Notes under the pieces: generated by a model
Database searches by the model: none
Told to the model about the DNA's origin: nothing
Seen by the model: only the letters and a program-made list of their open reading frames with translations
Assembly (NCBI GenBank): GCA_965219445.1
Contig: CBDCNQ010000005.1
Location: 1,280,001 to 1,344,000, forward strand
DNA from: Longimicrobiales bacterium
Lineage (GTDB): Bacteria > Gemmatimonadota > Gemmatimonadetes > Longimicrobiales > Gaopeijiaceae
Length of the DNA stretch: 64,000 bases
Reading direction: 5' to 3'
Made by a program: the position numbers and the translations under genes
Shown here: positions 1-19,685 of the stretch, piece after piece
Layout of the letters: each line of letters opens with the position of its first letter
Numbering within the stretch: the first letter of the stretch is position 1

Positions 1-217
1 CAGTTCCGGATCGTTCTTCAATCTGGTGAAGAGCCACACCTGGCAGGGGATGTTCGGCGACCCCAAGTACGGAGGCAACGTGAACTTTGCCGGGTGGGAC
101 CTCATCAACTATCCGGGTGTGCGCCTTGGGGTGAGCCCGGAGGAGCAGAGGCGCCTCGAAGCCGACGAGCTGGACCCGGTGCGGCAGTCCGCGTACGACT
201 ACAACCTGTTCGAATGA
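1..217 (+). CDS. Gluconate 2-dehydrogenase subunit 3 (gamma)-family protein, C-terminal part (5' end outside window)
   Basis: HTWQGMFGDPKYGGN..GW.LI.YPG matches the family C-terminal motif; lies directly upstream of a GMC flavoprotein. Confidence 0.8.
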   Translation, partial: SSGSFFNLVKSHTWQGMFGDPKYGGNVNFAGWDLINYPGVRLGVSPEEQRRLEADELDPVRQSAYDYNLFE

Positions 218-265
218 CGCCCGGAATGTCGTTCGACCAGCCTTCCAGGGGAGGAATCTGAGGTC

Positions 266-1972
266 ATGCCGACGCAGCTTCTTGAGACCGATGTCGTCAT
301 CGTGGGAATGGGTGCCGCGGGTGGGGTTGCCGCCTACCCGTTGGCGGAGGCCGGGCTGAACGTAGTGGGGCTCGAGGCCGGGACCTGGCTCGACCAGCGC
401 GACTTCGCCCCCGACGAGATCCGGAACAACTACCGCGATTGGCCCATGCTGGTGAACAAAGCCGAGCTGGAGCGGCCCACCTCCCGGGCTACATCGGCTG
501 ACACGGCCACCCGTGTCGGCAGCCACCCCATGATGAATGCTGTGGGAGGGACCACTCTCCATTACTGGGCCCAGAGTTGGCGGCTCAATCCATGGGACTT
601 CAGTATGGTGACCGAGACGGCGAGGCGCTATGGAGCGTCCAGAATTCCTACCGGCTCCACCGTCGAGGACTGGCCGTTCGGATACGACGAGCTGGAGCCT
701 TACTACGATCGGGTAGAGCGCGAGGTGGGTATTTCCGGACAGGCCGGGAACGTTCGAGGAGACATCGACTCACGCGGGAATCGATTCGAGGGACCTCGAC
801 AGCGTGAGTTCCCCATGCCGCCGCTGCGATGGACGGCCTTCCATGATCGCATGGCCGACGCCGCGCGTTCGTTGGGGTGGAATCCGTTCCCCGGACCGGC
901 CGCCGTCAACAGCCAAGCGTACGACGATCGCGCGGGATGTGGCTATCACGGGTTCTGCAACAAGGGTGGCTGTCCGATCAACGCGAAGAACGCCACGCAT
1001 ATCACGACCATTCCGAAGGCTGTCGACACGGGCAACCTCGAGGTGGTCACCCGTGCGCACGTCACGACGCTCGAGGTGGGCTCGGACGGACGCGTGACCG
1101 GCGTCAACTACGTGGTGGGAAGCAATGAGTATTTCCAGCCGGCGAGGGTCGTCTTGATCGCGTCCTACACCTACGAAAACGTCCGTCTGTTGCTCTTGTC
1201 GAAATCCCGCGCCTATCCCGACGGGCTGGCGAACAACCATGGACAGGTGGGCCGGCACTACTTCAGTCATAACACGCGCGCGGGTGTGGGAGCGCTCTTT
1301 CCGTACGACCTCAAGGCGTGGTACGGCCTGCCGGCGCAGGGCGTCGCGGTGGATGACTGGGCCGACGACAACTTCGACCACTCCGATCACGATTTCATCG
1401 GGGGAGGAAACCTCTGGGTCATGTCGGACCGCCGGCCGATTTCGGCGGCGAACATGAACACGTACGGCCGAAGCCGTAATTGGGGATCCGCCTGGAAGCG
1501 GTTTATCCACGAACACTCCGATCGAACCCACGGCTCCTACATCCAGAAGACGACCCTCCCCTACGAAGACAACTACCTGGATCTGGATCCCCAGGTGACG
1601 GATCCTTTGGGTTTCCCGGTCATCCGCATTACGGGACAGTTCAAAGAAAACGAGATGGAGATCGCCGCGTTCATGCAGGATCGCATGGAGGAGTGGTATC
1701 GGGAGGCCGGGGCCGTCGAGGTCAACCGGAGTGGATTCGGCAGCACCATGGGCGCTTCCACCCACGCTTACGGGGGCACGCGCATGGGCGACGACCCGGA
1801 GACCAACGTGGTCGATCGTTGGGGATTTTCGCACGAAGTGCCGAACCTGGGAGTCCTGGGTGCCTCGGTGATGGGAACGAGCGGGGCGCGTAATCCTACC
1901 CTGACGAGTCAGGCACTCTCATGGCGTACGGCGGCGCATCTCGTCGAGAGTTGGAGGGATATCGCCGAGTGA
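266..1972 (+). CDS. GMC family oxidoreductase (gluconate 2-dehydrogenase-like flavoprotein)
   Basis: N-terminal GMGAAGG FAD motif, CGYHGFC..GGC cluster, C-terminal HAYGGTRMG and NPTLT. Confidence 0.9.
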   Translation: MPTQLLETDVVIVGMGAAGGVAAYPLAEAGLNVVGLEAGTWLDQRDFAPDEIRNNYRDWPMLVNKAELERPTSRATSADTATRVGSHPMMNAVGGTTLHYWAQSWRLNPWDFSMVTETARRYGASRIPTGSTVEDWPFGYDELEPYYDRVEREVGISGQAGNVRGDIDSRGNRFEGPRQREFPMPPLRWTAFHDRMADAARSLGWNPFPGPAAVNSQAYDDRAGCGYHGFCNKGGCPINAKNATHITTIPKAVDTGNLEVVTRAHVTTLEVGSDGRVTGVNYVVGSNEYFQPARVVLIASYTYENVRLLLLSKSRAYPDGLANNHGQVGRHYFSHNTRAGVGALFPYDLKAWYGLPAQGVAVDDWADDNFDHSDHDFIGGGNLWVMSDRRPISAANMNTYGRSRNWGSAWKRFIHEHSDRTHGSYIQKTTLPYEDNYLDLDPQVTDPLGFPVIRITGQFKENEMEIAAFMQDRMEEWYREAGAVEVNRSGFGSTMGASTHAYGGTRMGDDPETNVVDRWGFSHEVPNLGVLGASVMGTSGARNPTLTSQALSWRTAAHLVESWRDIAE

Positions 1973-1984
1973 AGCACCCTCCCG

Positions 1985-2042
1985 GCGACCTGAGAATCAG
2001 TTCCTAGCAGCGATCCTCTGCTCTTCGTCCGTCTTCCGCTCC
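1985..2042. repeat. 58-bp perfect direct repeat, copy 1 (3' end of monooxygenase M1)
   Basis: Identical to 7338-7395. Confidence 0.95.
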
Positions 2043-3391
2043 TCCATGAGCCTGTCGTAACCCTCTTCATCGAGGTGGGTGACGGCGATCCAGGCGTGGG
2101 ACATCTCGTCCGCGGTTCGGCTGCCCCCATCCACCCACTGATCCGGGTCCGGGTTGTTGGGGTTGCCCTCCGTGTTGTCGTACCACTGCTTGATTACGAG
2201 GACCGCACCGGTCGGCACCAGGGGCGCCGAGTCATCCCCATAAATGTGGCTCTGGTGCCATGTGGCGCTCCAGTTGGAGATCATGCTGATGATCTCCGTC
2301 TGTCCGGTCTCCGGATAGAAGATCTCCAAAGACGCAGACCGCAACCGCAAATGCCCGTGGGGCTGGAAGCTGTCGATGCGGACCGGATGGTCGAAGCTGT
2401 GAAAGCCCTGCGTCATGGCCGTCCCGTGGGGGGGCATGACGAGCTCACCTTCACGGATCCTATAGCTCTTCAGGTCCTGCTTGTACTCGTACTCGTAGTC
2501 CGCCGGGTGGAGCCAGATGCCCAGATCGACCACGTTGCCCTCGACCACGTCGTTCGCGGCAGTCGCTCCGAGCCCGCCGGGATACAGGTGGATGCTCCAG
2601 CGGATATACGCATCCACGGGGATCACTCGGCAAACGCCGTCGGGAATGATCTCACCCAGCTTGCCCATAGCGTACTCGGTTGCCCGGTCCCCCGACCCCT
2701 CGAAGCTGCCGTCTTCCTGCAGGAGTTGGAAGGTGGAGTTGGCGTGGTGGACCACCGTCTTGGCGACCCCACGAGGCTTCACCTGAAGGGCCTTGATGCA
2801 GCGCTCCTCGCTATCGGGCAGGCCTTCGATCTTGACGATTGGACTGTGCCACATGTCGAGCCCTGCGGCCGGCACGTCGATGGGGGTCGAGGGGGCGAGC
2901 AGGTCCGGCGGACCGAACAAGGCCGACAGCGACCAGTCGTCGGTGTCGAGCAAGTCCAACTCCGGAATCTCTTCCGCATTGCCCAGAGGCGCGCCCTGGT
3001 CGACCCAGGCAACGATCGTATTGATGTCCTCTTGGGAAAGACGCCAGTCCTCCTTGAGGTCCTGGATGCCGACATCGTTGTCGTAGTAGTACGGCGGCAT
3101 CAGGCGGTTGGCTACCTTGTTCTTGATGAGAGGCGCATACATCTGGACGTCGTCATAGGTCACGAGCTCCATGGGCCCGATTCCGCCCGCGCGGTGGCAG
3201 ACCGTGCAGTTCTCCTGGATGATGGAGGCCACGTCGGCGGAGTAGGTCACGTCCACGTCGTTTGTAGACGCGAAGGTGGCCTGGGCCTGGGCTGAACTAT
3301 GGAAGGTGAAGGTCGCGACGAGTGCGAAAGTGGCGGCTCCGATCCAAGGCGACCACAAACGCGAATGCGGGCTCCGATTCTCCAATTCCAT
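1997..3391 (-). CDS. Secreted cytochrome c / copper type II (PHM/DBH-like) monooxygenase fusion, paralog M1
   Basis: Signal peptide; CTVCH...MPP; VVHH, WSIH, QPHGH and DEM copper ligands; purine-rich RBS before ATG 3391. Confidence 0.8.
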   Translation of the reverse strand: MELENRSPHSRLWSPWIGAATFALVATFTFHSSAQAQATFASTNDVDVTYSADVASIIQENCTVCHRAGGIGPMELVTYDDVQMYAPLIKNKVANRLMPPYYYDNDVGIQDLKEDWRLSQEDINTIVAWVDQGAPLGNAEEIPELDLLDTDDWSLSALFGPPDLLAPSTPIDVPAAGLDMWHSPIVKIEGLPDSEERCIKALQVKPRGVAKTVVHHANSTFQLLQEDGSFEGSGDRATEYAMGKLGEIIPDGVCRVIPVDAYIRWSIHLYPGGLGATAANDVVEGNVVDLGIWLHPADYEYEYKQDLKSYRIREGELVMPPHGTAMTQGFHSFDHPVRIDSFQPHGHLRLRSASLEIFYPETGQTEIISMISNWSATWHQSHIYGDDSAPLVPTGAVLVIKQWYDNTEGNPNNPDPDQWVDGGSRTADEMSHAWIAVTHLDEEGYDRLMEERKTDEEQRIAARN

Positions 3392-3475
3392 GTTTCTCTC
3401 CCTCATGCTCGGGTGGACCACATCTGCAGCTCAAAAGCTGCCCGGGCTCCCTCCTTTGGGGAATGACTCCCCCCC

Positions 3476-3505
3476 AATCTACGTGTCGATCCGAAGGGAA
3501 AACAA
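3476..3505 (-). promoter_or_regulatory. Putative sigma70-type promoter for M1
   Basis: Minus strand TTGTTT-N18-TAGATT; conserved at 6193-6221 while the surrounding intergenic DNA diverges. Confidence 0.45.
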
Positions 3506-3569
3506 TAGGCGGCGGATACGAACCTGCAGGATAAAACTCCTTCTCGAATACTCGTATCGAAGGTGTTTC

Positions 3570-4565
3570 TTACGGTGTTACGTTCACCCTGACGTAACCG
3601 TTGGTCCAGCAACAATTGTCATTATCGCTGCTGTCCGGCGCAGTGAAGTTGTCCACCCGGGCTCGCATGATGTACTCACCCGGCACGGAGAACGTAACAA
3701 TCACGCTGGCGGTGCCCTGCCCCTCCGAAAGTTGGATAATCTGGGGTCCGGAGGCTGCACGGTCTCGTCGAGCAGCGGCGCCAACACCACCACCACCAGC
3801 GGCGGCAGCAGCAGAGGCCGGCTCCTCCTCCTGCTCCTCCTCAGGGTTGGACTCGTGCCGCGTGTACTCCACCCGTCCGGGACCCTGGAGCTGGGACCAT
3901 ATCACGCGAAGGGGAATGTCCAGAGAACGGGCATCGTCCGGATCCCTCTCCGAGGGGTCCGTCGCGTTGACCGAGAGGGTGAGGGGAGATCCTACCGACA
4001 CGGTCTGCGTACGTTCTGCCATGATGCCCGGAGGTCCCCGGCCCACGCCGGACTGCGAGTCGAAGGAAACGCTGGGAGGTAGACCGCCGTGAGGCCGGGG
4101 CACCCAGTCCAATTCGTAGGCGATGGCACCGGTCCGGCCGGGTACCCTCGTGACGTCGCCGTTCGCTTTGGTAAGGGTCCACCAGACGTCCTGGTCCTTC
4201 ATCTCCGCCGGCAGAGTCACCGTGAAGATCCCGCGGTGGTGTCCGGGGAAAAAGATCGTGGACTGCACCCCGTCGAACTGAGCCGGATCGAGGAAATTAT
4301 CCTCTCCCACAGGGATGTACAGCGTGTCCAGGTTGGCATTGCTGTATCCGAAGGAGATGGTGTACGTCCCGTCTTCATTCTCGTACCAGCCTTCCATGAA
4401 GGGGGCGAGGACGTGATTTCCGGGAGAGTTGGGCTGCAGGGGCCAACGGCCATCCGGCCCCGGACCCGTCACCTGGGCCTGGAGTACCGCTGGACCGGCC
4501 ACAGCACCCCAGAGAAGCAGCGCGACGGCCACTCCACCCACGGTCATACGAAACTGGTGCATCAT
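3570..4565 (-). CDS. Secreted hypothetical protein with Ig/PKD-like C-terminus ending CCWTNGYVRV, paralog P1
   Basis: Signal peptide, RBS (AGGAAGGAG), close paralog of 6247-7209 and distant paralog of 16660-17490. Confidence 0.8.
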   Translation of the reverse strand: MMHQFRMTVGGVAVALLLWGAVAGPAVLQAQVTGPGPDGRWPLQPNSPGNHVLAPFMEGWYENEDGTYTISFGYSNANLDTLYIPVGEDNFLDPAQFDGVQSTIFFPGHHRGIFTVTLPAEMKDQDVWWTLTKANGDVTRVPGRTGAIAYELDWVPRPHGGLPPSVSFDSQSGVGRGPPGIMAERTQTVSVGSPLTLSVNATDPSERDPDDARSLDIPLRVIWSQLQGPGRVEYTRHESNPEEEQEEEPASAAAAAGGGGVGAAARRDRAASGPQIIQLSEGQGTASVIVTFSVPGEYIMRARVDNFTAPDSSDNDNCCWTNGYVRVNVTP

Positions 4566-4609
4566 GGACTCCTTCCTGAATGCTCGAGCGTCGCATCGAA
4601 GGCGGGACT

Positions 4610-4670
4610 GAAAGAAGCGATGGGGACCGAAGGAGCCGCGGGTGCTGCGAAGCGTCCTTCGATCCCCATC
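4610..4670 (-). terminator. Putative intrinsic terminator or stabilising hairpin downstream of M2
   Basis: 16-bp stem 4619-4634/4655-4670 whose single mismatch is a G-U pair on the minus strand, followed by GCUUCUUUC; second copy near 7265-7316. Confidence 0.5.
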
Positions 4671-4704
4671 AGTAAAGATCCAGCATGTAAAGCGACCTGC
4701 GCGA

Positions 4705-6105
4705 TCAATCCCTAGAGGCAGTCCTTTCCGCTTCCTCCTTCATCTTCCTTTCCTCGAGGAGCTTTTCGTAGCCTTCCTCATCGAGGTGGGTCACGCCGAG
4801 CCAAAAGTGCGACATCTCGTCAGCCGTCCGGCTTCCATAGTCGACCCACTGATCCGGATCCGGGTTGTTGGGGTTGCCGTCCGTGTTGTCGAACCACTGC
4901 TTCATTATGAGTACCGCGCCGGCCGGGACCAGGGGCGCCACGTCATCCTCGTAAATGTGACTCTGGTGCCAAACGGCGCTCCAGTTGGATACCATGCTGA
5001 TGATCTCCGTCTGTCCTGTCTCCGGATAGAAGACTTCCAGGGACGCGGACCGCAAGCGTAAATGCCCGTGCGGCTGGAAGCTGTCGATACGGACCGGATG
5101 GTCGAAGCTGTGAAGGCCCTGGGTCATGGCCGACCCGTTCGGCGGGATCATGAGGTCGCGCTTACCCTCCATGAAGTCATAGCTGACCAGGTCCTGCTTG
5201 TACTCGTACTCGTAGTCGGCTGGATGGAGCCAGATGCCCAAATCGACCACGTTGCCCTCGATCACGTCGTTCACGGCAGTCTTTCCGAGTCCGCCGGGAT
5301 ACATGTGGATGTCCCAGCGGATATAGGTATCTGCTGGCAGTACTCGGCACACACCGTCGGGAATGATCTCACCCAGCTTGCCCATGGCGTACTCGGTTGC
5401 CCGGTCCCCCGTCCCCTGGAAGCTTCCGTCTTCCTGCAGGCGCTGGAAGGTCGAGTTGGCGTGGTGGACCACCGTCTTGGCGACCCCACGAGGCTTCACC
5501 TGAAGGGCCTTGATGCAGCGCTCGCCATCAGGCAGGCCTTGCATCTCCACCATTGGACGGTGCCACAGGTCGAGGCCGGCCGCCGGCACGTCGATCGGTG
5601 TCGAGGGGGCGAGAATGTCCGGCGGACCGAAGTCGGCCGACAGCGTCCATTCGTCTGTGGGGAGCAAGTCGGCCGGCGGTGGCATATCGTCCGGATTGCC
5701 CAGAGGCGCTCCCTGGTCTACCCAGGCAACGATGGTGTTGATGTCCTCTTGGGAGAGACGCCAATCGTGCTTGAGCTCTTGGATGCCGATATCGTTGTCG
5801 TAGTAATACGGCGGCATCAGGCGGTTCTCTACTTTGATCTTGATGAGGGGCGCATACATCTGGACGTCTTCATAGGTCAGGAGCTCCATGGGCCCGATTC
5901 CACCGGCTCGGTGGCAGACCTGGCAGTTGTTCTGGATGATCAACGCCACGTCGGCGGCGTAGGTGACGGCCACGTCATTCGACGCGAAGGTGGCCTGGGC
6001 CTGTGCCGTGCTCTGGAAAGCAAAGGTCGCGACGATGGCGAACGTGGCGGCGCTGGTCCAGGGCGTCCACAAGCGCGCACGTTGGCTGCGATTCTGCAGG
6101 TCCAT
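4705..6105 (-). CDS. Secreted cytochrome c / copper type II monooxygenase fusion, paralog M2
   Basis: CQVCH, VVHH, WDIH, QPHGH, DEM; highly similar to M1. Confidence 0.8.
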   Translation of the reverse strand: MDLQNRSQRARLWTPWTSAATFAIVATFAFQSTAQAQATFASNDVAVTYAADVALIIQNNCQVCHRAGGIGPMELLTYEDVQMYAPLIKIKVENRLMPPYYYDNDIGIQELKHDWRLSQEDINTIVAWVDQGAPLGNPDDMPPPADLLPTDEWTLSADFGPPDILAPSTPIDVPAAGLDLWHRPMVEMQGLPDGERCIKALQVKPRGVAKTVVHHANSTFQRLQEDGSFQGTGDRATEYAMGKLGEIIPDGVCRVLPADTYIRWDIHMYPGGLGKTAVNDVIEGNVVDLGIWLHPADYEYEYKQDLVSYDFMEGKRDLMIPPNGSAMTQGLHSFDHPVRIDSFQPHGHLRLRSASLEVFYPETGQTEIISMVSNWSAVWHQSHIYEDDVAPLVPAGAVLIMKQWFDNTDGNPNNPDPDQWVDYGSRTADEMSHFWLGVTHLDEEGYEKLLEERKMKEEAERTASRD

Positions 6106-6192
6106 GATGGTCCTCTCCCTCAAGCGAGTGAACTACGCATACTACGTCTCAAGCGACCCAGGTTCCTTCCCCCGGGGATTTACAGCTCTCCG

Positions 6193-6221
6193 AATCTACG
6201 TCCCGATCCGAAGGGATACAA
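6193..6221 (-). promoter_or_regulatory. Putative sigma70-type promoter for M2
   Basis: Minus strand TTGTAT-N17-TAGATT. Confidence 0.5.
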
Positions 6222-6246
6222 TACAGCACGACCACCGGGCTTGATC

Positions 6247-7209
6247 CTACCTGACGTTCACCCTGACGTAGCCGTTGGTCCAGCAGCACTGGTCCCCCGA
6301 GCCGCTGTCAGGCGCACTCCAGTTGTCCACCTGCGCTAGCATGAGATACTCACCCGGCACGGAGAACGTAACAATCACGCGGGCGGTGCCATGCCCCGCC
6401 GCAAGCGGGATAACCTGGGGTCCGCCTGGCTCCGGTCGTCGTGTATCAGCGGCGTCGTCCTCCTCCTCCTCCTCCACCTCAGGGTTGGACTCGTGCCGTG
6501 TGTATTCGACCCGTCCCGGACCCTGGAGCTGGGACCATATCACGCGCAGGGGAATGGCCTCCGCGAAACGGAAATCCTCCTGATCCCTCTCCGAAGGGTC
6601 CGTCGCGTTGACCGAGAGGGTGAGGGGAGATCCTACCGCGACGGTCAGCGTACGTTCTGCCATGATGCCCGGAGGTCCTCGGCCCACGCCGGAATCCGAG
6701 TCGAACGAGACGCTCGGAGGGAGACTGCCGTGAGGCCGGGGAACCCAGTCCAGCTGGTAGGCATTGGAAGTGACCCGGCCCGGCACTCTCGCGACGTCGC
6801 CGTTCGCTCTGCGAAGGGTCCACCAGACATCCTGGTCCTTCATCTCCGCCGGCAGAGTCACGGTGAAGATCCCCCGGTGGCGTCCGGGGAAAAACGTCGT
6901 GGGCTGCATCCCGTCGAACGGAGCCGGATCGAGAAAATTACCCTCTCCCAAGGGAATCACCAACGTGTCCTCATTGGCATTGAGGTACCCGAAGGAGATG
7001 CTGTACGTCCCGTCTTCATTCTCGTACCAGCCCTCCATGAAGGGGGCAAGGATGCGATGACCGGGAGAGTCAGGCTGGAGGGGCCAGCGGCCATCCGGCC
7101 CCGGCCCCGTCACCTGGGCCTCGAGTGCCGTTGGACCAACTGGACCCGCCAAAGGACCCCAGAGCAGCAGCGCGGTGGCCACGCTACACACCCTCATCCG
7201 AAGCATCAT
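6247..7209 (-). CDS. Secreted hypothetical protein ending CCWTNGYVRV, paralog P2
   Basis: Signal peptide, GAGGAGGAG RBS, paralog of P1. Confidence 0.8.
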   Translation of the reverse strand: MMLRMRVCSVATALLLWGPLAGPVGPTALEAQVTGPGPDGRWPLQPDSPGHRILAPFMEGWYENEDGTYSISFGYLNANEDTLVIPLGEGNFLDPAPFDGMQPTTFFPGRHRGIFTVTLPAEMKDQDVWWTLRRANGDVARVPGRVTSNAYQLDWVPRPHGSLPPSVSFDSDSGVGRGPPGIMAERTLTVAVGSPLTLSVNATDPSERDQEDFRFAEAIPLRVIWSQLQGPGRVEYTRHESNPEVEEEEEDDAADTRRPEPGGPQVIPLAAGHGTARVIVTFSVPGEYLMLAQVDNWSAPDSGSGDQCCWTNGYVRVNVR

Positions 7210-7337
7210 GAACTCCTCCTCGAACGTTGGAGGGTCGAATCTAAGGCGGGATTGTGAAAGAAGCGAAGGGGACCGAAGGAGCCGCCGCTGCTGCGAAGCG
7301 TCCTTTGATCCCCATCAGTAAAAATCCAGCATGTAAA

Positions 7338-7395
7338 GCGACCTGAGAATCAGTTCCTAGCAGCGATCCTCTGCTCTTCGTCCGTCTTCCGCTCC
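7338..7395. repeat. 58-bp perfect direct repeat, copy 2 (orphan 3' end of an M1-like gene)
   Basis: Identical to 1985-2042; preceded by a copy of the 4566-4700 intergenic region. Confidence 0.95.
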
Positions 7396-7511
7396 GATGG
7401 AGCCATCGACAGTAGCGTCACAAGTGTGCGTCTTCTTGTTGCGTCGACGGCGAATTACGATACAGTGCGCGAGTGATATCACCCTCGATCACCAGATAAA
7501 GGGAGTTTCCC

Positions 7512-7703
7512 ATGGCGGCATACACCTGCGACAAGTGCGGCATGAGCGTGAACATGACGTGTGGTCAGTGTGGGCAGGAGCTCGTCCATGACACGCTCAC
7601 CACGGACGACGGCAGCAGCGTTGAGGTATCGAAATGTCCCGAAGGACACGGCATGATCAAGTCGCCGATGTGCTGCGCACAGGACATGACCTGCACGGTC
7701 TAG
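7512..7703 (+). CDS. Small Cys-rich putative metal-binding protein (63 aa)
   Basis: GGGAG RBS; CxxC, CxxC, CxxxH, CC and C motifs. Confidence 0.75.
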   Translation: MAAYTCDKCGMSVNMTCGQCGQELVHDTLTTDDGSSVEVSKCPEGHGMIKSPMCCAQDMTCTV

Positions 7704-7796
7704 CCGCCGGCTCGGCATAGCTGCAAGCGTCGGGCGGCAAGGGTTACCGCTCCCCTCGCTGAACCCATCGGAGCTCCGGTATCCTTCTTTTTCCCA

Positions 7797-10148
7797 ATGC
7801 CCTCCATCCTGAACTCCGCCTCTAGTGAGCCAGCTCTGACTGCTCGCTTTTTTTCGTGTTCTAGGTCGATCACGGCCTGCCTCCTGGGTGTCCTGCTTTC
7901 GAGTTCACCGACCGCCGCACTCGGCCAGGCTCAAGAAGCCTCGGATCAGGCTCAAGAAGCCTTGGACCAGGACGAGTCCGTCGACCTCGAGGCCATCCGG
8001 ATTCCCGACAGTCTGAGCATCGATCTCGACGGTCGGCTGGACGAAGAAGCTTGGAGTCTGGCCACTCCGATTTCCGACTTCACTCAGCAATATCCCGACG
8101 AGGGCGGCCTCCCCTCCGAGCGAACCGAGATCCGGGTCGTCTTCAACGAGAACGAGATGTTCATCGGCGCGATTCTCTACGACGACCCCAGTGGTATCCT
8201 CGCGTATCAAAGGCGTCGTGACGCGGGCCTCGGCACCGACGATCGGTTCATGTGGATACTGGACACGTTTCTCGACGGTCGGACGGGGTATTTCTTCGAG
8301 ATCAATGCCGCTGGGCTGATGGGTGATGGACTGATCACGGGCGGCGGCGGCGGTGGTCGGGGGGGAGGTGGGAGGATGCAAAAATCATGGGACGGGATCT
8401 GGGAGACGCGCGTGGCCCGCCGGCCGGACGGATGGTCCGCGGAGATCCAGATACCGTTCCGCACGCTGAACTTCGATCCGGACCTCGACTCCTGGGGGAT
8501 CAACTTTCAGCGCACGATTCGTCGAAAACAGGAAGAGATTCTCTGGAGGGGGTATCGGAGGAACCAAGGAGTCTTCCAGCCCGTCCATGCCGGCCGGATC
8601 ACGGGCTTGCGGGATCTGTCCCAGGGGATCGGGCTCGAAGCGAAGCCCTACGCGGTCGGGAGCTGGAGGACGCAGCCGGCGGATGTCGATCCCACCACCT
8701 ACCCAAGGGACGTCGGGGTGGACGTGAGTTATAGCCTTACGCCGAGCCTTCGGGCCGCCGTCAGCGCGAATACGGATTTTGCGGAGGTGGAGGTGGATCA
8801 AAGGCGGGTCAATCTGACCCGCTTCCCCCTACGCTTTCCTGAGCAACGCGACTTCTTCCTCGAGGGATCGGGCGTGTTTTCGTTTGCGGGAAGGAACGGG
8901 GCTACGCCCTACTTCAGCCGTGACATCGGGCTGGCCGATGGGCGGCCCGTCCCCGTGACCTATGGCGCGCGCCTCGGCGGACAGGCTGGCAAGTACGAGC
9001 TCGGATTTCTTCAGGTGGGGACGGGCTCAATTCTGCCGGATACTCTGACTGGGTTCAGCGGAAGCCCCACCGAGAACTTCACGGTCGCCCGTGTCAAGCG
9101 GAGTTTCCTCGAGCAATCCACGGTTGGCGTAATCTACACGCTTCGTAACCCGGGCAAGGACATAGCGGGCGTGGCAGGGGTCGATCGCCACACCCTGGGT
9201 GCGGACCTGAACTACATGACCAGCCGCTTGTTTGGCGACAAGAACTTTCAGGCCGAGGCCTTTTTCGTCTGGAACTCCAATCCGACGCCGAGCGTGGACA
9301 CGTCCCTGGGGGACCTGACCGCGAGGGGTTTCCGCTTCGACTTCCCGAACGACGTCTGGCAGACGCACCTGTCGTACCGGGAATTTGGACATGAATACGA
9401 TCCGGCCGTCGGTTTCGTCACCAGGAACGGCTTCAAGCGTGTGGAGCCTCGTTTGGCGTGGCGTCCCCTATCCGACATCAGTTGGATTCGGCGCTACAGC
9501 GTTTCCGCGCAGTACCGCAGACTCGCCAATCTCACCACCGGACAAGTCGAGGAGGAGCAGTGGGATCTCAATCTCTTCGGCTTCGACTTCGAGGCCGGGG
9601 GTAACTGGGACATCATCGCCCGCCGTTTGGACGAGTACCTCGACCAGGACTTCGAAATCAGCGACGGCATCGTGATCCAACCGGGACAGTACAGGAACTG
9701 GGAGTGGACACTGACCGCCCGGACGCCGAGCCAGAGGAGATTGTCTGGAAACTTCAACTTCACGGACGGGGGCTTCTGGAGCGGCGACAACTTTCGCTAC
9801 TCAGTCGGGCTTACCTTCCGCCCGAATCCCGGATTCAGCATCTCCACCGATTTTGAACGAAACGACGTCGACTTGCCGCAGGGAAACTTCGAGGTCGATC
9901 TGACCCGGTTGGAGGCCGCGTGGGACATCAGCCCATGGGTGTCCGTCATGGGCAACATCCAATACGACACCCAATCGGAAGTCGTGGGGCTCTTCGCGCG
10001 GGCCCGCTGGATCATCGAGCCCGGGGCCGACTTCTATATCGTGTACACGAACAACTGGCGGAATCTAGGCGCCAGCGTGTTCGATCGGGACTTCCTGACA
10101 CTGTCGCGCGGTGGAAGCGTGAAGGTGAATTACACGTACAGGTTGTAG
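7797..10148 (+). CDS. CBM9-like / DUF5916 family outer-membrane protein
   Basis: Signal peptide; DGRLDEEAW; NTDFAEVEVD..RVNLTRFPLRFPEQRDFFLEG; barrel-like C-terminus VKVNYTYRL; start uncertain. Confidence 0.8.
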   Translation: MPSILNSASSEPALTARFFSCSRSITACLLGVLLSSSPTAALGQAQEASDQAQEALDQDESVDLEAIRIPDSLSIDLDGRLDEEAWSLATPISDFTQQYPDEGGLPSERTEIRVVFNENEMFIGAILYDDPSGILAYQRRRDAGLGTDDRFMWILDTFLDGRTGYFFEINAAGLMGDGLITGGGGGGRGGGGRMQKSWDGIWETRVARRPDGWSAEIQIPFRTLNFDPDLDSWGINFQRTIRRKQEEILWRGYRRNQGVFQPVHAGRITGLRDLSQGIGLEAKPYAVGSWRTQPADVDPTTYPRDVGVDVSYSLTPSLRAAVSANTDFAEVEVDQRRVNLTRFPLRFPEQRDFFLEGSGVFSFAGRNGATPYFSRDIGLADGRPVPVTYGARLGGQAGKYELGFLQVGTGSILPDTLTGFSGSPTENFTVARVKRSFLEQSTVGVIYTLRNPGKDIAGVAGVDRHTLGADLNYMTSRLFGDKNFQAEAFFVWNSNPTPSVDTSLGDLTARGFRFDFPNDVWQTHLSYREFGHEYDPAVGFVTRNGFKRVEPRLAWRPLSDISWIRRYSVSAQYRRLANLTTGQVEEEQWDLNLFGFDFEAGGNWDIIARRLDEYLDQDFEISDGIVIQPGQYRNWEWTLTARTPSQRRLSGNFNFTDGGFWSGDNFRYSVGLTFRPNPGFSISTDFERNDVDLPQGNFEVDLTRLEAAWDISPWVSVMGNIQYDTQSEVVGLFARARWIIEPGADFYIVYTNNWRNLGASVFDRDFLTLSRGGSVKVNYTYRL

Positions 10149-10236
10149 CGGCTGAGACTACGGGTTGACGTGACAGAGACCGGACAGGCCTTATCGACCT
10201 ACCCGGTCTCGTTGCGTTGAACCGCGACGGAGATCC

Positions 10237-12573
10237 CTAGGGGGCTCTGGCCTCCTGGGAGGTTTGAGTCTCCTGCGTGGCTTTGGCCTTCAGGGCGGCC
10301 TGGTCCTCCGGAGTGGTCTTGGCCTCCGGAGCGGTCTTGGCCTCCGGCCCCGCCTGGGTCTCCGCCACGCCCTGGGCCTCCTTCGCCAGCCGAGCCTTCA
10401 CCTCGCGGCGCCGTGCATGTAGGACGGTCTCGGTGTAGCCGTTCGGCTCCTCACGGCCATTGAACACCAACTCCAGGGCGGCCTGAAACTCGGCGCTCGA
10501 CGAGAGATCGGCGGACATGGGTCGGTAGTTTGGGTCTCCTTCGTTCTGCTCGTCGACCACGGCCGCCATGGACTCGAACGTGCTCGTCACCTGATCTGCG
10601 GTGACGAGACCATGGAGGAGCCAATTCGCGATGTGCTGGCTCGAGATGCGCAGGGTCGCGCGGTCTTCCATCAGCGCCACATCGTTGATGTCGGGGACCT
10701 TGGAGCAGCCGATCCCCTGGCCGACCCAGCGGACGACATAGCCGAGGATGCCCTGCGTGTTGTTATCCAACTCGTTCTGGATTTCCTCATCGGTCAAGGG
10801 GCGGTCCCCGAGCAGGGGAAGCGTCAGGATGGCGTCTAGATCGGCGCGCTCCCGTTTGGCCAGCTCAGACTGAACGTCTCGGACGTTTACCCGATGGTAG
10901 TGCGTGGCGTGCAAGGTGGCCGCGGTGGGCGAGGGCACCCAAGCAGTATTGGCACCGGCACGTGGGTGGTCGATCTTCGCTTCCAACATCGCACCCATGA
11001 TGTCCGGTGCGGCCCACATGCCCTTGCCGATCTGTGCCACGCCGGGGAGGCTGCACTCGATCCCCACGTCCACGTTCCAGTCCTCGTACGCGAGCATCCA
11101 GGGGCAGCTCTTGATCTCCGGCTTGGGGATCATGGCCCCGGCGACCATGCTCGTGTGGATCTCATCTCCGGTGCGGTCGAGAAACCCGGTGTTGATGAAA
11201 ATCAGGCGATCTGCGGCGGCGCGGATGCATTGCTTCAGGTTGACAGTCGTCCGCCGCTCTTCGTCCATGATACCGATCTTCAGAGTCCGCTTCGGCATTC
11301 CCAGAGCTTGCTCGATCCGACCGAACAGCTCCACGGTGGCAGCAACCTCTTCGGGACCGTGCATTTTGGGCTTCACGATGTAGACGCTGCCCGTACGGCT
11401 ATTGCGCACGGGGCCGTCGCCGTTGAGGTCGTGGAGGGCGCCCCAAGACGTAATCAGCGCGTCCAAGAACCCCTCCGGGATCGGCTCGCCAGCCATAGTG
11501 GTGACGGCGTCGGTGTACATATGAATCCCCACGTTGCGCACGAGGAGAAGGCTGCGCCCCGGCAGTTTGAGCGCCTTACCGCTCCGGTCTTGATACATGC
11601 GATCCTCATTGAGAGTACGCGTCAGTGCCCGGCCGTCCTTCTCGAGCGTGGCCGTGAGCGTCCCCTTCATGATCCCGAGCCAGTTGCGATAAACGAGGAC
11701 TTTGTCCTCCGCGTCGACGGCCGAGACGGAATCCTCGCAGTCCTGGATGGTCGTGACCGCGGCCTCCATCACGACGTCGTAGACCCCGGCCGGATGCGCC
11801 TTGCCGACGGGATGATCCCGATCGATTCGGATGTCGATGTGGAGGCCATGGTTGCAGAGGAGCACGCTGCTGACACGCCCGCCCTCGAGCTGGAAGCCGG
11901 CGAAAAGGGACGGCTCTGCCGGCGCCGTCCGCCGGTCGTCGGACAGTACGCACACGAGGCGGCTCGGGCCGTCGTAATTTTCCACAACGAATTCGGTGAC
12001 CTCAGAGTAGAGGCCCTGGCTCAGAGGGACGACGTCGTCGAGAAAGCGCTCGGTCCACTCGACAACCCGGGCTCCTCGCACCGGATTGTAGGCGGCCCCT
12101 CGCTCCGCCCCGTCCTCCTCGCCGATGACGTCTGTACCGTACACAGCGTCGTAGAGGCTACCCCAACGTGCGTTGGCGGCGTTCAACGAGTAACGGGCGT
12201 TGTCCACCGGCACCACCAGTTGCGGCCCGGCGATCGAGGAGATCTCCGGATCCACATCGCTCGTGGTAATGGTGAGCGAGCCCTCCTCGGGGAGCACATA
12301 GCCCGTATCCTGGAGAAAGCTCTTGTATTCGTGCGGGTCGAGCGGCTGGCTGGCCCGTTTCTCGTGCCACTCGTCGAGCCCCTTCTCGTGACGGGCACGC
12401 ACGTCGAGGAGACGGCGGTTCTCCGGGCCGAGCTCCGTGACGATAGTCCCCAGGGAGGTCCAAACCGCGTCAGGGTCGAGACCTGTGCCGGGTGCGATTT
12501 CCGACCGCGCCAGGTCGTATAGAGGCTTCGCGATACTCAGGTTCGCGATGTTGACTCGCTCGAGTGCGCTCAT
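10237..12573 (-). CDS. glcB: Malate synthase G with repetitive C-terminal extension
   Basis: [64 protein letters not shown]. Confidence 0.95.
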
Positions 12574-12802
12574 GGCTGCGGGCTCCTGGACCAGGGTTTA
12601 CACCGACGCGTCACACCGTCGGAAAGGCGCGACGCCAGAGGCCGGCGTCCGGGGACAACGCGATGGGTCTGTGGCTCACCGCAACAAAGAATTAACTGCC
12701 GGGGCCCTCCGCTGCAAACACAGGAGCGGCGTCCTTACCGGGGGTCGGTCACTCCGTCCTTGTGGCCTAGGGCCACGCAAGGATTCCCGTCGGGCCCGCG
12801 GC

Positions 12803-15106
<2,304 letters not shown>

Positions 15107-15125
15107 TGGCCCGATCCCCTTTGTG

Positions 15126-15166
15126 GAAAACGCGAGCGGGCGCGCCCTTCGAGAGGGCGCGCCCGC
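15126..15166 (-). terminator. GC-rich hairpin between M3 and the PQQ gene, possible terminator or attenuator
   Basis: Perfect 13-bp stem 15136-15148/15154-15166 followed by a short T run on the minus strand. Confidence 0.5.
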
Positions 15167-15210
15167 GGAAACGAAATGTAGAGCCGTCTTAGAGACGGCG
15201 GCGGGCCGTC

Positions 15211-16572
15211 CTACCTGGCCGCGATTGGCTGTTGGCGCTCCTGTCGCCGCTCCATCATCGTCTCGTACTCCTCCTGCTCCAGATCGGTAATGCCGACCCA
15301 CATGTGAGACATCTCGTCCACACCGCGTCTACCGAAGACCACCCACTGCTCGGGATCGGGATTGAGCGGATTGTCGGCCGTGTTGTCGAAGACGGACGTG
15401 AAGAGAAGCATCGTACCGGCGGGAAGGAGAGGTTGGGCGTCTTCCGCGTACTGGTAGGAAAGCTGCCAGATGTGCCTATAGTCGGAGACCTTGCCGAGCA
15501 TTTCCCTGCGGCCATCCGGGTAGATCGCTTCCATCGACATCTCTTTGCCCCGCATGTGCATGTGCGGCCGGAAGCTGCTGATCAGGGTCGGCGACTTGAG
15601 TACGTGGATGCCTTGGAGGACCTGCCGTCCGTGCGGCGGAATGAGAATGTCGCCGGCCCGCGGCATACCGTTCCTCCGGTCGACCATGAAGGTGACTTCT
15701 CCTCGGGTCTCGACCTCGGGCTGCTCGCCCTCCGGGTAAAGCCAGAGCCCGACGTCGACCACGTCGTCCTCTACGAGCTCACCGGCCGGGAAGTAGTGGA
15801 TATTCCAGGACACCTCAGCTTCCCCGGCGGGAAGCAACATCCCGACACCCTCCGGGAACGTCTCATAGCGCTTTCCGACTCCGTAATGCGCGATTCCGAC
15901 GCCGCCATCGTAGCCTCCGTCCACGCCCTCGTACCGGAGGCTCGCGTGGCCGTGATGGACGACCTTGAGGCCATTCGGATACGCTGGCTTGAACTCATAT
16001 CCTTTGATCCAGCGGTCCTCGTCGGCGCCCACGAACTTCTCCCGGGGCGCCCACCACTGGTCCTGGCCGTTGGCCACCACGTCGTACGCGCCAGAACTGA
16101 CCACCACATCCGGTGGCCGGCCATACATTTCTTCGAGGGCCCAAGCACCCCCCTGTGCGAGCATGGGGGACGCTGGCATGTCCGCGTCATCACCCTTGAC
16201 CGCACCACCGTCTGCCCACCGGACGATCGTCTCGATCTCTTCGTCGGTCAGAGACACGTCGTTCCGGTAATCCTGAATCCCCACCGTCTGATCGAGGTGC
16301 CACGGTGGCATCTGCCGCGTCTGCACCTTGAGCTTCATCAGCGGTGCGTACAGCCGAGCGTTCTCATAAGTGAGGAGCGACATCGGCGCGAACGAGCCGG
16401 GCCGGTGACACGTGACGCAATTCTCGTAAAGAATCGGCGCCACGTCTTTGGTAAACGTGACCTCCTGCGCCTCGAGTGCCCCCATGGGCAGAGCCGACGC
16501 GATGATCCAGGCCGAGGCCAAAGCTCCGGCGGCCCGCAGGAAGTGCGTACGTAAGTCTCCCCTCATGATCAT
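15211..16572 (-). CDS. Secreted cytochrome c / copper type II monooxygenase fusion, divergent paralog M3
   Basis: CVTCH..MPPW, VVHH, WNIH, RPHMH, DEM; AGGAG RBS before ATG 16572. Confidence 0.8.
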
Positions 16573-16659
16573 TTTCTCCTTAAGCCATCCACGGCAACAT
16601 CGCGCGGGAGGTGATGATAACTCCACACTGATAACAAAGCCATCCATTTATCAAGCCAT

Positions 16660-17490
16660 CTATTCGATAACCCTAACTGGGACATATCCGTTCGTCCAAC
16701 AACAATGGAATTCGAACTCAACGGTCCTGTCGATCGACTGCACCCGGATCAGATAATCCCCGGGCTCACTGAACCTCGCCGTGGTGGTAGCCATCCGGTT
16801 TGCCATGTCGACCAGGATCTCCGGTTCGGCGAAATCGACCCTTCCGGGGCCCTGGTGGTGGGTCCAACCCACCCAAGTTTGATCGTCGGGGTGGTCGACC
16901 CAGACGCTCAAGCTGAGCGGTTCATCCACGGACACCGTGCGTGGCTCCCCGGTGAAACCCGTCCGCCCCTGGAATTCGGTTCCATTCCTCTCGAACCTGA
17001 GGATTGGTGCTACGCTCGCGCGGCCATCGGCGACGGGTTCATCCAAGACGTAACTCGCAAGAACCTTCCCGGGTGTCGAGATGTCTTCGCCATCTCTATT
17101 GAGTGTCCAGACGACCTGACCGTCACCGAAGTCCGCAGGCACGTTGACGGTGAAGACACACCAGTGTCGCCGATACCTCGCATCTGGCACCCGATCGAAG
17201 TGCGTCGGTTGTCCTCCGTCGAACTCTGAGGGCACAATGAAGTTGGCCGGTCCGAGGGGGAGGTCGATGTCTTCGTCTGTGTTCAGGTTGAAATACCCGA
17301 AGCAGATCTCGTACGTATCGTCGGGATTCTGATAGTACCCCTCATAAACGGGGACAACGGGCTGCCCGGAGGGCCGAAGAACTTGCTCGTTGAAAATGCG
17401 CTCGGCGAGGGGAGTTATCTGAGCGTGCGCGGCAGACACCGAGAGCGAGACCCATATGACGGCACCGGCGCAAAGACCAAACCTACTCAT
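16660..17490 (-). CDS. Secreted hypothetical protein ending CCWTNGYVPV, divergent paralog P3
   Basis: Shares P..EG.Y.N.D, FGY.N.N, FDG.QPT.F, QGPGRV and CCWTNGY with P1/P2. Confidence 0.8.
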   Translation of the reverse strand: MSRFGLCAGAVIWVSLSVSAAHAQITPLAERIFNEQVLRPSGQPVVPVYEGYYQNPDDTYEICFGYFNLNTDEDIDLPLGPANFIVPSEFDGGQPTHFDRVPDARYRRHWCVFTVNVPADFGDGQVVWTLNRDGEDISTPGKVLASYVLDEPVADGRASVAPILRFERNGTEFQGRTGFTGEPRTVSVDEPLSLSVWVDHPDDQTWVGWTHHQGPGRVDFAEPEILVDMANRMATTTARFSEPGDYLIRVQSIDRTVEFEFHCCWTNGYVPVRVIE

Positions 17491-17868
17491 CTACCCCTCC
17501 TGATTCGACCAACCCTGGCTCGACCGACACTGCTCGACCGACACTGTCTGTGGTCATTCGGAACCGCGTGGCCCCGTACAACGCGCGTGCCTGGGCCGGA
17601 CAATCCGAGGCCGGACAATAAGACCCTGGAGACTCACCGCGGGTCCGTTATGACGGGCGATCATGATCATCGAATTCCGCCAGCGCAAGAGCCCACGGAG
17701 ACAGAGCATGGCTCGCCTGTGGAGCCCTGGGCACCTCGGGCATGCTCCACTATTGTTGTGCCCAGTGCGGGGACTGTCGTGCCGAGTGTGGAAACCAACA
17801 CACTACCGACTCGACGCTCCGTTCGCGGTGGCCCCACAGCCGTAGAAGGGTCCAGAACCGAGGAGTCC

Positions 17869-18285
17869 ATGCCCAGAGTGAGCGTCACCAGAGAAGTCCA
17901 CTTCAGCGCGGCGCACCGAGTCTTCAATCCCGAGTGGAGCGACGAGCGCAACTTCGAGGTGTTCGGGGCGTGCGCTAATCCCAACTGGCACGGACACGAT
18001 TATGTGCTCTATGTAACGGTCGAGGCGGAACTAGACCGGGACACGGGCTTCGTGATGGACTTCAAAGACTTGAAGTCGGTCGTCGAGGCTCGCGTCGTCG
18101 ATGATTTGGACCACAAGAACGTGAATCTCGACGTGCCGTGGATGGAAGGAATCATCGCCTCAGCCGAAAACATCGTAGTCGCGATCTGGGATCGGCTCAC
18201 CGACCGCCTGCCTGACGGGGTGAAGCTGGCAAAGCTCACTCTCTGGGAGACGCCCCGCCATTACGTGGAGTATTCCGGTGAGTAG
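17869..18285 (+). CDS. 6-pyruvoyl-tetrahydropterin synthase (PTPS/QueD superfamily, PTPS-II-type motif)
   Basis: [35 protein letters not shown]. Confidence 0.9.
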
Positions 18286-18868
18286 CGATCTCTCGGGTGC
18301 CGCGTTCGAGGAGCTCGTCGCCGAGATGATCCGGCGGCTCGGCGATGACCCCGAGCGCGAAGGGCTCAAGCGGACACCCGAACGGGTGGCGAAGTCCCTG
18401 GCGTTCCTCACGCAGGGCTACGGCATGAAGTCCGAGGACGTCATCAACGGGGCCCTTTTCGAGGAAGGCCACCGGAACATGATTCTGGTGAAGGACATCG
18501 AGATGTACTCGCTGTGCGAGCACCATCTCTTGCCGTTCTTCGGCAAGGTGCATCTCGCCTACATCCCGAACGGCAAGATCGTGGGGCTGTCCAAGACCGC
18601 CCGCCTGGTCGAGGTCTACGCTCGCCGCCTTCAGGTGCAGGAGCGGATGACGGAGCAGATCGCTCAAGCGATCTGGGAGTTGGCCGAGCCGGAGGGCGTG
18701 GGTGTCGTTATGGAGGCCTATCACCTGTGCATGATGATGCGGGGCGTACAGAAGCAGAATTCGAAGACGATCACGTCCGCCATGCGGGGGTCGTTTCTCG
18801 AGAACCAGATGACACGCGACGAGTTTCTTCGTCTCTGCATGACCGACCACAATCCTCTCTCGCAGTAA
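18278..18868 (+). CDS. folE: GTP cyclohydrolase I
   Basis: [38 protein letters not shown]. Confidence 0.97.
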
Positions 18869-18887
18869 GCCCCTTTTTTGAGTGAAC

Positions 18888-18947
18888 GATCCACTTCAGA
18901 GAGGTCCACTTCAGAGAGATCCACTTCAGAGAGATCGAGTTCAGTGA
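18888..18947. repeat. 15-bp tandem repeat GATCCACTTCAGAGA x3 plus a degenerate fourth copy
   Basis: Units start at 18888, 18903, 18918 and 18933. Confidence 0.9.
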
Positions 18948-19672
18948 GCGATCCACCGCCAACGAATCCCCTCGAGGGTGCGTCCGCTTTGGTGGTCGGT
19001 GCGAGCCGTGGCATTGGGGAGGCCACGTCCCGAGTGTTGGCGGCGGCAGGAGCACGAGTCTGCCTGGCGGCGCGCTCGATGGAGCACCTCGACAAGATCG
19101 CCGAGGAGATCGGGGGAGTGCCCCTCCAGCTGGACCTCGAAGACACTGAGGCGGTGGGGATCGCGATGCAGGCACTCGTGTCCGAGGTCGGAGCCGCTCC
19201 CGACATCGTGGTGAACGCCGCGGGAGTGTTTTCTCTGATTCCGGTAACGGACACCCCGGTCGAGACGTTCGAGCAGGCCCTCGCGGTGAACCTGCGTGGA
19301 CCGTTCGCGGTCATCCAAGCCCTCCTGCCTGCCATGACGGCTCGGGGCTCCGGTTGGGTCGTTACGGTGGGCTCGGTGGCGGGACGGAAGGCATACCCGG
19401 GCAATGCGGCATATTCGTCGACAAAGTTCGGCCTACGAGGGCTCCACGAGGTGCTCAGAGAGGAGCTCCGCGGCACGGGCGTGGGGTGTTCACTGATCGA
19501 GCCGGCCGCAACGAACACGGACCTGTGGGATACCTTGGATCCGGATTCTGACCCGAACCTCCCCGACCGGTCGCAGATGCTTCGTCCCGAGGACGTCGCC
19601 GAGGCGATTCTCTTCGTGTGCACCCGACCCGAGGGGGTTCAGATTCCAGTTCTGGCCATCGAGCACGACTGA
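18944..19672 (+). CDS. SDR family oxidoreductase (candidate sepiapterin reductase); start could be 18878
   Basis: GASRGIG, NAAG, YSSTK. Confidence 0.85.
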   Translation: MSDPPPTNPLEGASALVVGASRGIGEATSRVLAAAGARVCLAARSMEHLDKIAEEIGGVPLQLDLEDTEAVGIAMQALVSEVGAAPDIVVNAAGVFSLIPVTDTPVETFEQALAVNLRGPFAVIQALLPAMTARGSGWVVTVGSVAGRKAYPGNAAYSSTKFGLRGLHEVLREELRGTGVGCSLIEPAATNTDLWDTLDPDSDPNLPDRSQMLRPEDVAEAILFVCTRPEGVQIPVLAIEHD

Positions 19673-19685
19673 CCCGAGTCCACGC

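Follow-up and report, generated by a model that had tools for sequence, protein, structure and literature searches.

Peptidylglycine alpha-hydroxylating monooxygenase (PHM) and dopamine beta-hydroxylase (DBH) are known as eukaryotic, ascorbate-fed enzymes that make amidated hormones and noradrenaline in animals. In the available text of PMC9064607 the reductant of PHM is ascorbate, and that of PMC12164859 gives its copper ligands as H107, H108 and H172 at one site and H242, H244 and M314 at the other, with R240 binding the substrate. Here we analyse a window of DNA (the whole stretch of 64,000 nucleotides, positions 1,280,001 to 1,344,000 of contig CBDCNQ010000005.1) from a Longimicrobiales bacterium, which encodes a bacterial protein, M, joining a c-type cytochrome to a copper core of this kind, together with its adjacent partner protein, P. 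The six P and M open reading frames (ORFs) put forward in a preliminary description of this DNA are confirmed, all of them on the minus strand: M1 (464 aa, 1997-3391), P1 (331 aa, 3570-4565), M2 (466 aa, 4705-6105), P2 (320 aa, 6247-7209), M3 (453 aa, 15211-16572) and P3 (276 aa, 16660-17490). The third pair, there called divergent, is so in sequence but not in orientation: M1 and M2 are 80% identical and P1 and P2 74%, while M3 shares 39-40% identity with M1 and M2, and P3 30-33% with P1 and P2.

The fold of M is that of PHM and DBH. The AlphaFold model of M3 (pLDDT 84) consists of a helical N-terminal domain followed by two beta-sandwiches; in a Foldseek search PHM or DBH took every listed rank from 1 to 29 (best E 6.8e-11), and VIA aligned M3 150-433 with residues 55-327 of PHM 1sdw (Z 17.6, rmsd 3.5, 247 aligned), the score being 15.2 for DBH and dropping to 8.1 for the next family. 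By both comparisons M3 has the two-domain PHM fold. Residues 36-126 match the monoheme cytochrome PccH (VIA Z 7.0, rmsd 2.1, 77 aligned), and M has the CxxCH motif, distal Met and helical fold of a class I c-type cytochrome, with a Pfam score slightly below the cut-off. M1, M2 and M3 each carry the ligand pattern noted earlier (CxxCH, MPP, HH..H, HxH..M), and each opens with an N-terminal hydrophobic stretch, in agreement with export as judged from hydrophobicity alone.

The ligands are conserved far beyond this locus. In M3 the heme attachment residues C52, C55 and H56 are encoded at 16405-16419 and the putative axial M88 at 16309-16311; counterparts of the PHM copper ligands, assigned from alignment and spacing, would be H206, H207 (15952-15957) and H259 (15796-15798) for CuH, spanning 15796-15957, and H337, H339 (15556-15564) and M421 (15310-15312) for CuM, within 15310-15570, which also takes in R335, two residues before H337, the spacing that R240 has in PHM. 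The ten ligand positions, heme and copper together, are invariant in 93/93 aligned relatives (90 P-paired and three solo proteins), and they recur together in 122 of the 131 full-span proteins among 150 listed distant representatives. When 17 of the 21 M paralogues of this genome were aligned (leaving aside two near-identical copies, a contig-end fragment and a copy without copper ligands), the mean column identity was 33% and the ten ligands sat among just 27 invariant columns, so the pattern is not due to chance. These fold matches and this conservation, from profile and structure checks, bear out the earlier proposal that M joins heme c to a two-copper core of the PHM/DBH type. Family models barely register it: Pfam gives a sub-threshold cytochrome c in M and a faint Cu2_monoox_C in M3 (E 0.076) but none in M1 or M2; 30 of 102 homologues match Cu2_monoox_C at E ≤ 0.01, one paralogue scores above the cut-off, the N-terminal family (Cu2_monooxygen) was not listed, and NCBIfam holds no model matching M or P.

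Positions around the copper cleft vary. Position 335 is Arg in 79/93 aligned proteins, Gln in eight (M1 and M2 included), presumably the DBH-like Gln position, and Glu in three; position 423 is His in 87/93, position 425 is Trp in 73 and Arg in 14, and H209 is present in 58/93. We take the PHM counterparts of 423 and 425 to line the copper cleft, and the variation may reflect substrate diversification. As a separate observation, locus L001 (4269-5429 and 5436-6476, contig C3 of this genome, G000) encodes an M-like protein with the heme motif and without copper ligands, possibly a non-catalytic offshoot; the gene before it gives a weak match to a heavy-metal-binding domain.

M shares with PHM (PDB 1sdw, 1phm) the two-domain fold, the His-His..His and His-x-His..Met order, export and, in most copies, an Arg placed two residues ahead of the first CuM His. 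Unlike PHM, it is bacterial, carries an N-terminal c-type cytochrome, has a partner P, separate or fused, lacks a fused PAL and shows 15-18% identity. PHM has several disulfides; M3 has no Cys beyond the heme pair. DBH, tyramine beta-monooxygenase and MOXD1 (PDB 4zel) have the same core and likewise an accessory N-terminal domain, but in M cytochrome c replaces DOMON, and the predicted assembly is a heterodimer with P rather than the homo-oligomer of DBH. The same heme and dicopper core also occurs in bacterial cytochrome c-Cu2_monoox_C proteins, so far uncharacterised, that bear fused redoxin or TPR domains; this wider superfamily comprises 25,535 clusters at E ≤ 1e-3 (5,154 at 1e-30), and the P-paired clade forms its own branch, with P in place of the redoxin and TPR domains. 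M thus has a core of the PHM/DBH kind on one branch of a large bacterial superfamily, and it is not PAM: an identity as a PAM-type system was rejected, there being no fused or stably linked PAL lyase. Lytic polysaccharide monooxygenase (LPMO) is a monocopper enzyme with a histidine brace and a fold unrelated to PHM. When its electrons come from a c-type cytochrome, or from a dehydrogenase that carries one, it resembles M as proposed here in being a copper oxygenase reduced by a heme protein (available text of PMC8981238), but it has no PHM core joined to that cytochrome. In line with the preliminary description, the full-text literature, most subscription papers and supplements lying outside its scope, yielded no report of a characterised system with this architecture and nothing about P or about bacterial PHM-type enzymes with a fused cytochrome c; the M-P system is not described in the available parts of PMC8812541, PMC12912966 and PMC12665527.

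P is a genetically fixed partner of M. The pairs first counted as a three-copy module are real, but the genome (completeness 91.8%) encodes 15 full P genes, every one adjoining M, and 21 M-like genes, some of them solo. Across 80 loci from Gemmatimonadota, Acidobacteriota and Gammaproteobacteria, P has an adjacent same-strand M in 78, one of the others being without M and one lying at a contig edge; the same arrangement was seen in 10/10 further loci. The P-then-M order that the three pairs had suggested is not conserved (48 M-P versus 30 P-M). Within the phylum, P was found in 35/201 genomes, and a renewed search of 31 genomes detected M in 13/13 P-bearing and 0/18 P-lacking ones, with matching P-class copy numbers. 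Despite repeated flips of gene order, 51 of the 58 well-supported splits of the M tree recur in the P tree (90 pairs). Physical fusion is also recurrent: 28 long P proteins comprise 21 intact P-M fusions, one P split around M, five with a partial M and one with none, the five partial ones being left uncounted as fusions because they are possibly frameshifted. Among distant M representatives there are two proteins fused in the M-P order and a second split form. In ten genomes the long open frames surrounding P, considered as further fusions, proved to contain just neighbouring M and P.

P itself appears to be a two-domain beta-sandwich protein of no known family. The P3 model (pLDDT 86) has two beta-sandwiches, with the CC dipeptide just before the last strand; the C-terminal domain resembles Ig/PKD-like folds with no clear best (Z ≤ 7.7), the N-terminal one not having been folded alone. 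Neither Pfam nor NCBIfam gave a match above cut-off (only a faint PKD), the Atlas clusters are unnamed, and a P profile search of the PDB returned nothing significant. M and P are not relatives (hhalign probability 0.6%). The C-terminal CCWTNGY described earlier does stand 5-6 residues before the end of P1-P3, and its CC contains the only Cys of P1, but 3/15 P of this genome lack CC. This CC-less class, also seen in five further loci, still pairs with M. CC is kept in 87/90 pairs, a set biased towards it by retrieval with P3-type patterns, and H262 in 71/90.

For the one pair folded, M3-P3, complex prediction gave an ipSAE of 0.89 versus 0.00 for the best of three controls, a mark reached by 116/157 solved and 2/215 mismatched pairs in a rough calibration that used its own alignments with ligands along. 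The runs shared at least 70% of contacts, with partner pLDDT of at least 88 and about 100 predicted contacts. On the side of M the predicted interface takes in 163-175 of the CuH domain, 307-310 and, preceding the CuM Met, the loop 405-418; on the side of P it takes in 260-263. In this prediction P lies along the rim of the copper cleft, with H262 and C263 of its His-Cys-Cys (residues 262-264, 16699-16707, minus strand) in the interface. The neighbourhood survey, the fusions, the congruent trees and this prediction agree with the dedicated partner role first proposed for P.

The preliminary description named two dehydrogenases as possible electron donors, and they fared differently. Downstream of M3 by 107 bp lies Qc (12803-15103, minus strand), a likely electron donor in which a PQQ-type propeller is joined to a cytochrome c. 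Its propeller is closest to PQQ alcohol and sorbose dehydrogenases (PDB 7wmd, 4cvb, 4mh1; whole-propeller alignment, E about 1e-90 to 1e-93, best 6e-93), from which it differs in its N-terminal cytochrome c fusion and in a host where pqqC was not detected; its Arg, Trp, Asp, Lys and Asn-Trp positions, which we take to be the PQQ/Ca contacts, are kept. The predicted N-terminus (15041-15103, minus strand) opens with a Gln run, and the true start may be downstream. Qc directly neighbours the pair in 21 of the 80 loci, sharing its strand in every case, with the orders P-M-Qc, M-P-Qc, Qc-M-P and Qc-P-M; it is present somewhere in 33. PQQ-type genes are enriched around the pairs: in this genome one lies within 1.5 kb of 5/12 M-P clusters versus 113/4098 genes (3%), the same test giving 1/24 for DUF5916 and 3/37 for NHL genes (4-8%), and in 13 genomes chosen as Qc-less one lies within 2 kb of 3/20 loci versus about 0.2 expected. 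The Qc subfamily was matched in P-bearing genomes (7/20) and not in P-lacking ones (0/18). The congener G206 has no Qc after M3, which speaks against a dedicated donor, and Qc is a frequent but optional neighbour of the pair. In the available text of PMC8981238 a c-type cytochrome can drive a bacterial LPMO.

The GMC flavoprotein (266-1972, plus strand), by contrast, was discarded as a donor and is not counted in the module: it converges on M1 at a distance of 24 bp, stands beside the array in congeners only and is found in 0/80 loci. Both GMC + Gluconate_2-dh3 pairs of the genome (266-1972 with L015:11499-12218; L012:2941-5208) are near M-P, within about 3.1 kb, and no cytochrome subunit gene was seen beside either. 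The genome shows parallel expansions of PQQ-type propellers (37 places), NHL (37) and DUF5916 (24), with pqqC not found. A redoxin/DsbD-N gene, called as two pieces of about 76 and 293 aa, is divergent from M-P in 11 loci of gammaproteobacteria (for example L073:4127-4357 and L074:3226-4107, plus nine other loci); many distant relatives of M have redoxin domains fused to them.

With a probability of roughly 0.6, we read M-P as a periplasmic, heme-fed dicopper monooxygenase heterodimer whose catabolic task would be the hydroxylation of small, mostly anionic organic compounds and in which P would close the cleft at its rim. Its chemistry, substrate and electron direction we infer as follows. M and P would be exported via Sec, and the heme attached by the cytochrome c assembly proteins, which are present in the genome. 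Single electrons would enter the M heme from periplasmic quinoprotein dehydrogenases, from Qc where present and otherwise from the cytochrome pool, and pass from the heme to the coppers in place of ascorbate. CuM would activate O2 for the hydroxylation of an aliphatic C-H adjacent to N, O or S. Because Arg is kept at the carboxylate-binding position of PHM, most copies, M3 among them, would bind an anionic, probably carboxylate, substrate, and M1 and M2 (Gln) and the CC-less class (Glu) others. The likely role is catabolic, with small organics made accessible to the hydrolases and dehydrogenases whose genes surround the 15 copies.

Several points weigh against this reading. Neither PHM nor DBH was retrieved from the PDB by sequence searches that started from M3, a solo paralogue or two M profiles, the structural identity of M3 to these enzymes is 15-18%, and the ligands of M3 were mapped onto PHM by order, spacing and aligned range rather than by superposed coordinates. 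Retrieval of the 80 loci relied on P3-type patterns, of which one contains CC, and all the counts include related genomes that are not independent of one another. Redoxin, TPR and other fusions occur among the 46 wider-superfamily members scanned; most members carry such domains and no fused P, so the core chemistry does not require P everywhere. As to the donor, the Qc subfamily was unmatched in 13/20 P-bearing genomes, a PQQ gene stands beside the pair in 0/10 further loci, and pqqC was not found in this genome or in 24 searched family members (the control of the first search was silent; a later search of the phylum matched 45/201 genomes). With no pqqC in the host, such donors would need scavenged PQQ.

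A bolder version of the monooxygenase reading is possible, and we offer it tentatively. M-P would be an ascorbate-free, self-wired class of PHM/DBH enzymes in which P clamps both copper domains and its His-Cys-Cys serves as an electron or copper relay at the cleft. It would form a closed loop with cytochrome c-PQQ dehydrogenases that oxidise the hydroxylated product and return two electrons, and, with 15 copies per genome, uncultured Gemmatimonadota, Vicinamibacteria and Pseudohongiellaceae would possess a major route, so far unrecognised, for activating C-H bonds of dissolved organic matter in the periplasm.

The same cofactors could support another chemistry, in which a substrate is oxidised at the copper site and the electrons are passed outwards through the heme, or in which M-P is a sink reducing O2, peroxide or nitrite. 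There is precedent in thiocyanate dehydrogenase, whose copper site oxidises the substrate while electrons leave via a separate cytochrome. A fused cytochrome indicates no electron direction, the association with dehydrogenases is equally compatible with a sink, and the additional His residues (H423 in 87/93, H209 in 58/93, P H262 in 71/90) could alter the metal site. Yet the exact His3 and His2-Met set of PHM and DBH is kept everywhere, the cleft-lining positions vary among paralogues as substrate specificity predicts, and 15 diverged copies would be superfluous for a simple sink; we regard this alternative as rather unlikely.

Amidation, which the preliminary description placed beside hydroxylation, fares worse, hydroxylation itself staying at the level of interpretation. 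Here M-P would hydroxylate a C-terminal glycine, of a peptide or an acyl-glycine, for a PAL-like NHL protein to cleave to the amide and glyoxylate. It would account for the Arg at the PHM R240 spacing in 79/93 (M3 included, M1 and M2 having Gln; the position is set by spacing), for the approximately 37 NHL genes of the genome, such a gene lying within 1.5 kb in 4/12 clusters, and for the NHL gene that follows Qc in several M3 orthologous loci and matches rat PAL (E 3.4e-18). The last, however, scores higher on TRIM71-type propellers and has His at what we take to be the place of the catalytic Tyr of PAL. PAL-like NHL genes directly adjoin the pair in just 5/80 loci, which is why the claim is weak, and among 20 genomes examined they also occur in 4/7 P-lacking ones, beside PQQ genes and not M-P. 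No NHL domain was found in 150 M representatives, 28 long P proteins or the module span. Malate synthase G, which uses glyoxylate, is downstream of Qc here but in 0/80 loci, making the glyoxylate link a genus-level one, and no precursor-peptide gene recurs in the neighbour clusters, in which ORFs under 70 aa were not called. Amidation therefore seems to us a poor candidate.

We give still less credence to a role in cofactor biogenesis, whereby M-P would make or install the quinone cofactor of PQQ-type propellers in pqq-less bacteria. The distribution of pqqC (above cut-off in 1/35 P-bearing versus 44/166 P-lacking genomes) fits this idea but is largely a family-level split, and the presence of PQQ propellers in 13/13 P-bearing genomes tested and the match of Qc in P-bearing genomes only (7/20 versus 0/18) fit it as well. 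On the other hand, genome G186 has pqqC plus at least 11 P, the propeller persists in 4/7 relatives lacking both P and pqqC, Qc aligns along the whole propeller with solved PQQ enzymes (E 6e-93), and PHM chemistry is aliphatic hydroxylation. Finally, it is highly improbable that P, in a question concerning its role alone and leaving M a monooxygenase, is merely a transient copper-loading or folding factor handing over Cu(I) via His-Cys-Cys, for although CC is kept in 87/90 P (in the set biased towards it), H262 and C263 contact M in the predicted complex and many superfamily members work without a fused P, there is one P per M with matching trees, the two are permanently fused in places, including a P split around M, about 100 contacts are predicted between them, and the CC-less P class is still paired with M.

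The array around M1 and M2 records a recent change. The segment 1985-2042, the end of M1 including its stop codon, is identical over 58 nt to 7338-7395 (minus strand), which is probably the remnant of a lost leading M, and at this second site a 91-nt intergenic element follows (7255-7345); its 95% identical copy at 4609-4699 (minus strand) sits directly 3' of M2. In the four congeners G204-G207, whose arrays differ in copy number and contain two to four M and three P, the array starts with M, and the leading M of G206 terminates in the same 58-mer. From the 58-nt copy and these M-first arrays, we consider it likely that a leading M was deleted here, and recently; the P-then-M order of the first two copies would follow from this loss, and the P partner of M1 or M2 is therefore unreadable from gene order. 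An assembly artefact was rejected: contigs of run X1, which may be the source sample and none of which spans the array, carry both 58-nt junctions unchanged, one of them joining the 7338-7395 repeat to unique DNA. No Rfam match was found within 1-20000, and promoter and terminator scans of the locus stayed at chance level. Elsewhere in this genome, L005:7854-14063 (contig C2) holds a P-M-P-M-M array of near-identical copies, either a very recent amplification or an assembly effect.

Other genes flank the pairs. Divergent from the array, at 7512-7703 (plus strand), lies a 63-aa ORF with eight Cys, possibly a small metal-binding protein, which has a single genomic copy, is 86-94% identical at the same position in four congeners, is absent among the called genes of the 80 other loci and has only faint zinc-ribbon matches. 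A DUF5916 gene follows at 7797-10148, and malate synthase G (10237-12573, minus strand) is near the module in congeners only. Upstream of P3 are three genes (17383-18868, minus strand, and 18878-19672, plus strand), the first two of which recur in six orthologous loci; from their motifs we take the three to be a pterin synthase (QueD/PTPS), a GTP cyclohydrolase I and a short-chain reductase.

In the available texts of PMC12164859 and PMC9064607 it is still debated how the second electron crosses the 11 Å cleft, with a fixed open site set against an open-to-closed movement, and also whether ascorbate is an additional activator of PHM and DBH. A bacterial enzyme with a built-in one-electron heme and a partner predicted to touch both domains would allow an ascorbate-free optical test of electron transfer. 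The M family is also a possible source of C-H hydroxylation biocatalysts. M3 has 4,916 near-length homologues among 8,000 candidates scored; members are annotated as 'hypothetical' or 'cytochrome c' and have multiplied in uncultured bacteria that secrete many catabolic enzymes. Being large, hidden in annotation and amplified, the family may therefore mark an unrecognised oxidative chemistry.

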